This document shows, one piece after another, positions 26,701-29,700 of a DNA stretch of 64,000 bases (within the stretch, counting starts at the first letter, position 1; every line of letters starts with the position of its first letter). Under the pieces are notes generated by a model. It saw only the letters and a program-made list of their open reading frames with translations, was not told the origin of the DNA and did no database searches. A program made the translations under genes and the position numbers. This DNA comes from an uncultured Spirochaetota bacterium (GTDB lineage Bacteria; Spirochaetota; UBA4802; UBA5550), in NCBI GenBank assembly GCA_963827275.1, contig CAWHAA010000006.1:32001-96000 (forward strand). Reading direction: 5' to 3'.

Positions 26701-29700
26701 GTTCATATCCAATTATAAAAACAAATGCTATTAATCAGTCAGTTTATACGACATATGATTACCGATTTGGTGAAAAAAGTTCTGAAACTGATTCAAACGG
26801 AAGTACAATTCGTTATGAATATGATGAATTCGGAAGGCTTGTAAAAACTGTCAACCCGGGTGACGAGTGGTCCAGTACAGTTATTTATAACATAACCGGT
26901 GATCCAAATACGCAATATATAGAGACACATGTTGCCGATGAATCAAGTTCTGGATTTCATTATAAACGTCAATATATGGATGCACTTGGAAGGGTTTATA
27001 AAATTATCCAGAAGGCAGAAGAGACGGATGCCTTTACTCTTGAGCAGGAAGTGGATATTGAATTTAATGAGCATGGTCAAAAAAACAGAGAAACCATGCC
27101 GTATTTAATCGGTTCATATAACGAAAGCCCACTTTATATCAAATATAAATACGACTCGTTAAATAGATTGATCTTGATTGATTATCCTGATAATACTTCA
27201 AAAAAATTTATATTTGCAAATGAGGGTGATGGAGAATATTCTGAAACATTAATAGATCGTGATGGTACAATGCACAAGTTGGTTCGCAATGCAAGGAATA
27301 GGGTAATTAAAAAAATAGATTCTAATATTGTTAATACCTCATATTCATATAATAACGCTGGCTTGTTGTCATTGGTAACTTATACCGATGGTTTGAAAAC
27401 AATGATAGAATATGATTCGCTTGGTAGAAAGGTGTCAATCTGTGATCCCAACACTGGTATTTCATCATATTCTTATAACGATGCTGGTTATTTATTATCT
27501 TCACATGATGCAATGGGTAATACGGTATCATATGAATATGACGCGATTAATAGAATTAAAAAAATACATCATCCCGAGGGTACTGCCGATATTAACTACT
27601 ACTATGATGATCCATCAATTAAAAACAGCCGGGGGAGAGTAACGAAAATAACAGACGGTGTGAGTGAATCGACTTTTGCATATGATGGCAAGGGACAAAT
27701 AATAATAAAAACACAAAAGATTGATGGCATGAAATTTATATTCCAGATGGAATATGATAAAGTCGGGAGAGTTGCGCGTTTGACATATCCCGATGGGACA
27801 GCAATATCCCGTCAGTATGCTAATCTTGGGTATCTCAAAAATGTTGATTGGAATGGATATTCTATCGTCCAGTATGGACGTTTCAAAGAAGATAAAAACA
27901 GCAGTATTCGGAATATTGAGAATCGGGTTTATCGAATCACTGGAGATGGTGTTGAGACCAATATATTATATAATCCAGCTACTACCAAGCCTGAACGAAT
28001 AGTGTCAAAAAAGAATTACGGTAGCGGTGACGTTATTGAAGATGTAACTTACGAATATAATGTCTCTAATATAACATCTATAACCGACAACCTCGATAAT
28101 TCAAAATCGCAAACCTTTGCTTATGATTCATTAAATCGCCTGATTTCCGCTGATGGCGTATATGGTCATATCTCTTATAATTATGCAAACAATGGTAATT
28201 TAAGAAAGAAGGGCGATCTTGTACTTAATTATAATGATTCGTCTCATCCATATGCTGTGACCAGTGATAGTGTGGGAAACAATTATTTGTATGATGATAA
28301 TGGTAATATGATTTGCCGTAAGGGAAGTGAGCTTGTCTATGATAGTTTAAATCGTCTGATGGCAATTAAAAATAATGGTAATAATATAGCAATCTATAAT
28401 TATGATCATACTAATCATAGAATTAAGAAAACATTAGGAAATGGAACGGTCATTTACAATATCGAAAATTTATATGAAATTACGAGAATTCCTCAATATC
28501 CTGATCTTCATACAAAATATTTTTATGGTGTAAAAAATGAATTAGTCGCTCAAATGACTATGGAAAATTCTCAACTTTTATCCTTTAACAATCCGTCTGT
28601 TATTAACAGCTATTATGCAAAGAATAATCTTAAGGGTCTTATATTATTCACATATGAGTATTTGAATTATTTAAGCAATAACAAGAAAACATACCGTTAT
28701 TTTATTTATGTAACTTTACTTCTTGGTTTTTTTGTATTGTTAACATTAACTTTTAAAAACATAATCATATATAAAAGTAGAATAAAAATTTTACCTGTTT
28801 GGGCAATAAAAACAGTGCCAGTACTTTGCTTTACTGTATTTGCATCATACGGTTTATTCGGCTGTAGTAATATGATCAGTGATTCTCATGACAATGGCGA
28901 ATCTCCTTGGAATATTTTGATATATACGGATGTTAATCTACCATCCGGCACACCAGTTCCGGGAATGATGTTTTTTCATCCCGATTACAATAGAAATATA
29001 AGTTATGTTACCAATGCGCAGGGCGAAAAAATCTATCAGGCATATTATAAACCTTATGGTGAAATTTCTGAAATGTCAGGGAGAGATGTTGTTCGGTATA
29101 AATTTAATTCCCATGAGCATGACCAGGAATCTGGACTTATGTATTACAATGCCCGCTATTATGATTCCAATATTGGAAGGTTTATTACCCCTGATACAAT
29201 TGTCTTTGATCCGGGGCAGTCGCAAACATCCAATCGATATATGTATGTAGTTGGTAATCCTATCGCTCTCAATGATGCTACTGGCAATAGTCCTGAATCA
29301 CAGCTTTATCTGTATGCTGAAACAATGATGGCCAATTGGTCTAAATGGTCTGAACAAGAATCTCAAAAAAGTCTGGGCGTCCAGTTTTGTAAATCAATAA
29401 TAAATTCATTTACAGGTATATTCTCATGGATAGAGGGAGGCTATAAAGGATTTCTATCCGGTTGGATTACAAATTTAATAAATTATCCTGGCTTTAGTTT
29501 GTCATATTCATACAATGCAGGCTGGGGAGTTACTGGAGGTTTATATGGCCGATATTATTGTATAAGCTGGGGTAATGGTTTCCACTGGCAGGAAAAAGGT
29601 CCCAACGGTGGCTGGAGCATCTATGGTACAGTTTCATTGAGTTATGAAAAACTTTCGGTTGGGCTGGCGACCTCATATAACTTTAATAAGCATTCAATAA

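Follow-up and report, generated by a model that had tools for sequence, protein, structure and literature searches.

The RHS protein encoded in the window, by which we mean the whole 64,000-nucleotide stretch of DNA analysed (positions 32,001 to 96,000 of contig CAWHAA010000006.1, from the uncultured Spirochaetota bacterium of assembly GCA_963827275.1), carries just ahead of its core a predicted membrane hairpin that ends in a lipobox-like cysteine, Cys1706, and this insert probably works as an internal lipoprotein signal processed by Lgt and LspA. Sequence comparison suggests that RHS cages with such a predicted internal signal are widespread in Spirochaetota.

The RHS gene is a single open frame of 2,161 codons on the plus strand (23748-30233), with an in-frame TTG at 23748 and its first ATG at 23763, from which the protein has 2,156 aa (23763-30233); it lies within a low-GC island. 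A frameshift or fused-gene artefact was ruled out because the frame is open throughout the 2,161 codons and because the same layout occurs in open frames of ~2,000-2,450 aa in most of 30 loci. On the two sides of the insert the following features were identified up to the end of the core:

23763-23843, plus strand: N-terminal Sec/SPase I-like signal peptide with the peak hydrophobic window (KD 2.49) and a predicted cleavage site
23853-24062, plus strand: SpvB/TcB-type N-terminal segment (PF03534, E 3.7e-17, aa 36-105, spanning only the first 70 of 287 model positions), resembling the N-termini of TcdB2 and YenB
24723-25820, plus strand: FG-GAP (integrin-like) beta-propeller, limits approximate (PF13517, E 2.4e-20; PF01839), with repeated DxxGDG motifs
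25821-28562, plus strand: RHS/YD-repeat shell, start approximate (PF05593, TIGR01643, NF041261)
28965-29288, plus strand: final shell strands and RHS core with autoprotease residues (TIGR03696, E 3e-19)

The preliminary description had read the N-terminus as a Sec signal, and a signal-like segment is indeed present there, being the most hydrophobic window of the frame; a hydrophobic N-terminus is also found in 39 of 46 near-full-length relatives. The RHS core domain was matched at aa 1767-1846 in the Pfam/NCBIfam scan, and the four autoprotease residues R1803, D1816, D1843 and G1846 are all invariant in a set of 46 sequences. The claimed lack of PAAR and VgrG was likewise borne out, neither being found in the RHS protein or in the 92%-complete genome, with control genomes giving matches for both. 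A search of the same 92%-complete genome for TcA (PF18276) returned no match, as did the control genomes, and PADLOC gave no match.

The domain hallmarks of the TcdB/TcaC class are present in the protein (signal peptide, SpvB domain, integrin-like propeller, RHS/YD shell and core with autoprotease residues), tips are variable across the family, and by its domain sequence the protein is assigned to this class of polymorphic toxins. The accessible portion of the class description (Zhang et al. 2012, PMC3482391) gives it a signal peptide, SpvB, an integrin-like propeller, RHS repeats, a length of ~2,200 aa and a variable tip, and lists spirochaete carriers. The window protein resembles the class in architecture, length, variable tip and small downstream gene, but differs from it in the membrane hairpin and internal lipobox, which are not described in that portion, where the word lipobox is mentioned four times, for MafA, Amoebophilus prodomains and Imm65 (PMC3482391).

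The insert comprises 134 aa (28563-28964) and replaces the loop of one beta-hairpin just ahead of the core, directly behind the last two shell strands that precede it (28506-28562). It had been proposed that the helices interrupt the RHS protein before the core; the position is right, and the shell itself is unbroken, only that one hairpin loop being replaced. Following a short motif, the insert runs from an amphipathic helix through helix 1, a basic loop, helix 2 and Cys1706 to a linker:

28563-28586, plus strand: semi-conserved motif adjoining the final shell strand (70% of 97 rows have Leu at Q+8)
28629-28679, plus strand: amphipathic helix before helix 1 (helix 529-545 of the AlphaFold model), presumably at the membrane surface
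28698-28754 (aa 1651-1669), plus strand: hydrophobic helix 1, predicted stop-transfer (19-residue KD mean 2.2; model helix 547-575)
28755-28796, plus strand: basic loop, predicted to be cytoplasmic, the n-region of the internal signal (charge bias across relatives)
28797-28862, plus strand: hydrophobic helix 2, containing the lipobox L-F-G and predicted to be an internal type II signal peptide
28863-28865, plus strand: Cys1706, predicted lipidation and cleavage site (invariant alignment column)
28866-28964, plus strand: low-complexity linker with a P-W motif, resembling a lipoprotein tether (pLDDT <50 at the linker start)

Hydropathy and coordinates agree in placing two hydrophobic helices and a basic loop where the preliminary description had them, and helix 2 ends in L-F-G-C as it claimed. 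Ranked over the 2,161-residue frame, the N-terminus (2.49) is followed by helix 1 (2.2) and helix 2 (1.88), with the next window at 1.38. The best window of helix 2 (aa 1681-1699) is of moderate hydrophobicity, and the helix contains Lys and Pro. Hydropathy, charge asymmetry and the AlphaFold helices together predict that both helices are transmembrane. Across relatives the linkers have 10-113 aa (median 46) and are poor in K/R, and a P-W lies at most 30 aa from the Cys in 77 of 132 inserts. At the other end of the insert, L120 of the motif after the last shell strand is nearly invariant in an alignment of 21 sequences, and this motif could be a docking strand or a release site, that is, a second cut.

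An AlphaFold model of aa 1100-1849, built with 46 sequences, reached a pLDDT of 87 and a pTM of 0.82, and 593 of its 750 residues align with TcdB2-TccC3 at 2.5 A (Z 34). The four helices of the insert fall between the neighbouring strands 500-507 and 640-646. The structure prediction asked for by the earlier description has them looping out between two adjacent shell strands, with the shell itself predicted to be closed around them. In alignments, insert-less RHS proteins link the two flanking strands by few residues, and three relatives have soluble inserts of 87-168 aa at the same hairpin site. These soluble inserts, together with the size of the insert, suggest that it points outward.

Conservation of the insert and its Cys in homologues, spirochaete RHS proteins included, was one of the checks named in the preliminary description, and it was upheld. 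A search with aa 1450-1900 matched 614 proteins; among the 120 of these listed, hydrophobic peaks precede the core in ~30, and helix 2 ends in Cys in all 26 rows examined from the matches listed, the window protein included. A phylum search of 401 genomes gave the insert with its Cys in 30 of the 30 best loci, the 119 genomes matched in that search including core-only matches and so not being an insert count. Pooled relatives yielded 227 rows with both anchors, reduced to 158 by clustering at 80%; loop lengths in these non-redundant rows are bimodal, with 22 at 0-35 and 136 at lengths of at least 87. Four of the long inserts without a hydrophobic segment, one of them a mis-anchoring, were dropped, leaving 132.

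Helix 2 ends in Cys in 131 of these 132 non-redundant hydrophobic inserts (127 by the lipobox rule and 4 by eye; 1 is without), and in the 21-sequence alignment no column from Q1602 to G1759 other than that of this Cys is invariant within the interval. The lipobox rule was satisfied by 0 of 560 shell windows and by 27% of inserts in which the Cys had been randomly relocated, and a stricter rule by 117 of 136 inserts, 1 of 584 shell windows and 495 of 13,600 shuffles. None of the 22 short-loop RHS relatives has a lipobox, and Cys makes up 0.22% of shell residues. The Cys at the end of helix 2 is not there by chance. As the relatives are kin and were found with an insert-containing query, these counts are not independent events.

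Carriers with names comprise Spirochaetota MAGs, many Leptospira species, SAR324 and an uncultured delta proteobacterium, and the insert is present in proteins of L. interrogans, L. santarosai, L. noguchii and L. biflexa; among the loci compared it is absent from Nitrospirales, Fulvivirga, Thermodesulfobacteriota and one SAR324 locus. In a FastTree tree of 65 of the 107 insert rows and 56 insert-less rows, calculated with the insert columns excluded, 56 of the 65 sampled insert rows form one clade (support 100), and 4 changes are needed in all. A signal plus a hairpin is found in 7 of the 2,713 ORFs of the genome, among which only the RHS protein combines a signal, a lone hairpin and a lipobox.

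The orientation of the hairpin can be read from its charges. K+R exceeds D+E in 115 of 128 basic loops and the reverse holds in 2 (means 4.1 vs 1.2); by the positive-inside rule, the loop would be cytoplasmic and the Cys periplasmic, provided that the N-terminal signal exports the shell.

The residue before the Cys is always small or polar in the 127 inserts (G 65, S 17, N 17, T 10, Q 8, D 4, A 4, H 2). It is Gly in 12 of 12 loci of the order to which the window belongs, and across 32 Leptospiraceae loci, with family f15 assigned there by likeness to named loci, it is Asn in 13, Gly in 9, Ser and Thr in 3 each, His and Gln in 2 each. By a crude rule, N-terminal lipoprotein-like ORFs of the genome itself (n = 257) have G in 29%, S in 26% and A in 15%, and those of the Leptospiraceae loci (n = 74, same kind of rule) N in 35%, S in 27%, G in 12% and Q in 8%. 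The residue in the insert lipobox tracks the lipobox usage of each lineage. Hairpins without the Cys end in A-E-A (P0248) or V-E-A (P0098 and P0134), both resembling sites for signal peptidase I; in P0248 a lipobox-like Cys is found at the N-terminus instead. A few short genes (L088/P0276 and P0252) start with Met and then have the same kind of helix, the Cys, the linker and the core. The genome has matches to 3 Lgt, 2 LspA and 4 LolA, plus GspD.

A basic region, a hydrophobic helix and a small residue before the Cys, the features of a type II signal, are all present in the insert, and its likeness to the classical signal peptide handled by Lgt, LspA, Lnt and Lol extends from the basic region, helix and lipobox Cys to a disordered tether. 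It differs in its place, 1,700 residues from the start of the chain and after a stop-transfer helix, so that the N-terminal position of such a signal is found only in the short stand-alone genes. An internal signal peptide that is cut is known from a bacterial polyprotein, FbcH of Bradyrhizobium. In the full-text literature searched, mostly open-access papers, no internal lipobox is described for RHS proteins.

Topology, lipidation, cleavage, two-piece assembly and toxicity are what we infer from these comparisons. The shell would be exported by Sec until helix 1 halted transfer; helix 2 would then start export anew, after which Lgt would diacylate and LspA would cut at Cys1706, giving a 190-kDa shell piece and a 50-kDa lipoprotein composed of linker, last strands, core and tip. 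Since the cut would fall in a hairpin loop, the two pieces could close into one cage. The core autoprotease, whose PxxxxDxxG motif is described for Tc toxin in the accessible text of PMC7861908, would cleave itself after D-A-T-G-N, and the 34-kDa tip would come loose within the cage. Through its lipid the cage would be held at the core end and could enter lipoprotein sorting (Lol, perhaps T2SS). Most likely it would be displayed to act against bacteria nearby, and the downstream lipoprotein would confer immunity.

The comparative evidence favours cleavage and lipidation over an uncleaved tether, owing to the lineage-matched lipobox, the signal-peptidase-I-like replacements and the stand-alone helix-plus-Cys genes, and with it the earlier suggestion of a membrane-tethered cage, possibly cut and lipidated at the internal Cys, gains backing from sequence comparison. 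The tether reading takes the hairpin as an uncleaved inner-membrane anchor, with the cage whole in the periplasm, perhaps lipidated and uncut, as an envelope-bound store or sensor. We regard it as unlikely, given that LspA normally cuts diacylated lipoboxes and that it leaves unaccounted for both the lineage-matched lipobox usage and the swap to signal-peptidase-I-like sites in variants without the Cys. Conservation does, however, extend to helix 1, the interfacial helix and the basic loop, and the weak point of the favoured reading lies here too, as the shell would remain fixed in the inner membrane by helix 1 once LspA had cut, and our search found no release protease for the shell piece. 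Counterparts in L. interrogans are annotated as 'cytoplasmic membrane protein' in the accessible text of PMC2387172, which also agrees with a tether.

The variants without the Cys can be read differently, namely that the insert exists for cleavage and for pacing export and that the lipid matters less: the hairpin would be excised on both sides, the tip would enter the periplasm only after the shell, and the cage would be released or displayed on the surface. A cleavable-looking site is retained in these variants, P0098 sits among insert-less rows of the tree, suggesting a separate gain, and a semi-conserved motif comes right behind the final strand of the shell. Where a second cut would fall is conjecture, though, and the retention of Cys in 131 of the 132 inserts places the lipid under strong selection, so that this explanation appears distinctly improbable to us; in part it is compatible with an internal lipoprotein signal.

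The enzymes involved were considered as well, since one candidate protease gene lies near the RHS gene:

20719-21495, 2 kb upstream of the RHS gene: CPBP protease gene (Pfam match)

If a sortase-like intramembrane protease of the myxosortase/CPBP type handled the Cys in place of Lgt and LspA, this gene would be a candidate, and MYXO-CTERM tags do have an invariant Cys that is cut by a CPBP protease, as the accessible text of PMC11980579 states. That text gives them an invariant Cys by a membrane helix, predicted lipidation, display by T2SS and a dedicated CPBP protease. They carry Cys, helix and basic tail at the C-terminus, whereas the insert has the order of a type II signal, the reverse of MYXO-CTERM, with basic loop, helix and Cys and then 455 residues (PMC11980579). 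The CPBP gene was rejected as the processing enzyme because it is not a conserved neighbour, no homologue lying beside the RHS gene in 10 other loci, and we give a protease of this type hardly any credence. The myxosortase paper (10.1101/2023.06.07.544157) makes no mention of invert, Rhs, Leptospira or Lgt.

The RHS insert, a predicted membrane hairpin that carries an internal lipobox and divides a beta domain, was also set against other known systems. Helix 2 and its Cys cross-match weakly with NCBIfam NF058595 'invert_tail' (lipo-invert putative C-terminal anchoring domain): 2 of 21 members matched, with a best E of 0.02, and L047 scored 13 bits against a cut-off of 37 bits; the window insert gave no match to this model, nor did anything in its own genome. 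The RHS insert differs in splitting a shell and in being followed, after the Cys, by 455 residues with autoprotease and tip, and it appears analogous to NF058595 rather than a member. The BC shells of Tc toxins (TcdB2-TccC3 and YenB-YenC2) share the fold, the autoprotease motif and a two-chain shell, the last being a prediction for our protein, but here there is a single Sec-signalled gene, and the split is predicted to occur after export, ~110 residues before the cleavage site of the core. Bacterial teneurin-like proteins have a Sec-exported YD cage, a toxin and an immunity gene, and their Gram-negative members are predicted lipoproteins; they differ in an N-terminal lipoprotein signal and an NHL/FN-plug architecture, and the accessible text of that paper does not mention Leptospira or spirochaetes (PMC13018210).

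Behind the core, the tip and its neighbours are as follows:

29289-30233, plus strand: 314-aa C-terminal tip, putative toxin, with a central eight-strand Gly/aromatic beta-meander (low-confidence model, pLDDT 49.6)
30239-30820, plus strand: 193-aa lipoprotein, putative cognate immunity protein (weak LIC12231 lipoprotein match, below cut-off)
31346-31780, plus strand: permuted papain-like fragment, possibly a displaced tip remnant and a lead only (Atlas score of 0.95 with unnamed clusters; among named families Peptidase_C92 comes closest, with 0.88)
31695-32537, plus strand: ankyrin-repeat gene with lipoprotein-like start, possible spare immunity gene (Ank Pfam match)
32632-33381, plus strand: second such ankyrin-repeat gene (Ank Pfam match)
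33594-34115, plus strand: third such ankyrin-repeat gene (Ank Pfam match)

The third ankyrin gene is followed by an IS, and the ankyrin genes are low in GC like the RHS gene. The tip of the window protein has no Pfam match, Atlas scores of at most 0.81 and 4 database matches, all close kin; among all the relatives fetched, this tip is common to only ~14 database proteins. The best fold matches of the tip model are outer-membrane barrels (Z 10.8), with no Foldseek match at E 0.001, and at a model pLDDT of 49.6 the barrel likeness may only reflect the beta-meander. Compared with Pfam, 71 tips of the family gave 2 M23 peptidases, 1 Ntox33 and 1 HINT, 4 matched glycine-zipper or DUF families only, and 63 had no match. 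The tip would be an interbacterial toxin. Against this, only these 4 of the 71 tips belong to an informative family, the window tip is 41-77% identical among close relatives rather than hypervariable, and its own genome holds no paralogue of the RHS gene and no orphan core. In favour, besides the M23, Ntox33 and HINT matches, the 193-aa lipoprotein gene co-varies with the tip, its homologues lying behind the RHS gene in the three relatives that share this tip, and the next genes across 70 loci mostly have, by eye, lipoprotein-like or exported-protein-like starts.

T6SS Rhs effectors carry membrane segments for insertion into the target cell, and the two helices might likewise be shielded in the producer, insert into the membrane of the victim and deliver the tip. 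They do adjoin the core where the tip leaves, and the genome gave no PAAR or VgrG partner by which the tip could otherwise be delivered, nor a TcA partner in the search whose control genomes were blank as well. A Sec-exported chain with two such hydrophobic helices and a basic loop would, however, insert in the producer's own membrane, no conserved chaperone gene lies nearby and the lipobox is left unaccounted for; we therefore hold action on the target cell to be very improbable.

A broader reading of the internal lipoprotein signal is possible, if doubtful: a two-piece RHS system of spirochaetes, in which the lipoprotein machinery cuts the cage wall and a core-plus-tip lipoprotein module plugs into the shell after export. 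The short genes L088 and P0252 would in that case not be silent orphans but active modules loaded in trans; next to the Leptospiraceae gene, the conserved LA_3334-family cluster would be a dedicated kit for surface export or display. The accessible texts mention Leptospira RHS genes only by way of annotation: LA1765 and LA3333 are listed as Rhs or 'cytoplasmic membrane' proteins (PMC2387172), LA_1765 is flagged as SpvB-like and virulence-associated (PMC3789758), and an RHS gene is co-regulated with an adjacent lipoprotein (PMC13066512). LA_1765 may belong to the insert-bearing RHS proteins. Several such RHS genes are found per Leptospira genome.

The routes known for RHS cages out of the cell are T6SS, TcA and an N-terminal signal, and an internal lipoprotein signal, if true, would add a further exit or anchoring route. 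It would also mean that Lgt and LspA work on a chain 1,700 residues from its start, in the manner of internal signals in viral polyproteins, and that lipoprotein predictors reading only N-termini miss the insert-bearing RHS proteins. For the general idea of a hairpin plus internal lipobox, only putative in NCBIfam, L. biflexa is a culturable, harmless host in which it could be tested. Going by the sequences compared, the internal signal is probably what allows the cell to split the exported chain and to attach a lipid anchor to the part with the putative toxin. This offers a concrete, testable explanation for the anchoring and presentation of RHS proteins in Leptospira.

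Stand-alone genes of the type helix-Cys-linker-core were also encountered, and five Met-start candidates were found among the short proteins; two of these candidates appear clean. In P0276 (5785-6972 of the RHS locus L088) and P0252, both short separate genes, Met and a basic start are followed by a hydrophobic helix, a Cys, a linker, the RHS core and the tip. P0276 overlaps the 3′ end of the last gene of a conserved cluster and has downstream of it small lipoprotein genes and a full-length RHS gene. This cluster adjoins the RHS gene in the Leptospiraceae loci L116, L117, L118, L088, L097 and L082, none was seen adjoining the RHS gene in the window's own family, and it comprises:

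an LA_3334-family gene
a propeller-like lipoprotein of about 450 aa
a TPR-like gene

At least five small lipoprotein-like genes are arrayed 3′ of the RHS gene in L116 (16011-19978) and L118 (1074-4990), resembling polyimmunity arrays, here made of lipoproteins. In the locus L115, a remnant (16687-16914) lying 3′ of the putative immunity gene begins at the lipobox, suggesting that recombination break points fall within the linker.

The hairpins of the relatives' proteins P0248 and P0098/P0134 lack the Cys and end in signal-peptidase-I-like sites; P0248 carries a lipobox-like Cys at its N-terminus, and P0098 is placed in the tree among relatives without the insert. The Cys-bearing insert is also present in SAR324, in an uncultured delta proteobacterium and in other bins (L044, L047, L049, L051, L064, L071, L089, L091, L096). 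A Peregrinibacteria-labelled record (L035) has a copy closely resembling those of spirochaetes, possibly through a binning error.

A low-confidence model of the window's RHS tip (29289-30233) shows a meander of eight strands that looks like outer-membrane barrels; the tip could be a pore-forming or outer-membrane-inserting cargo. Positions 23000-35000 form a low-GC island (GC 0.30-0.40 vs about 0.56), at the edge of which, at 31346-35200, lie the following:

a permuted papain-like fragment, an IS of the integrase type, and three ankyrin genes whose starts resemble those of lipoproteins

As for the lipidation, signal-cleavage and sorting proteins, the window's genome gave three matches to Lgt, two to LspA and four to LolA (G000:C9, C4, C5 and C8), and a paralogue might serve internal sites.
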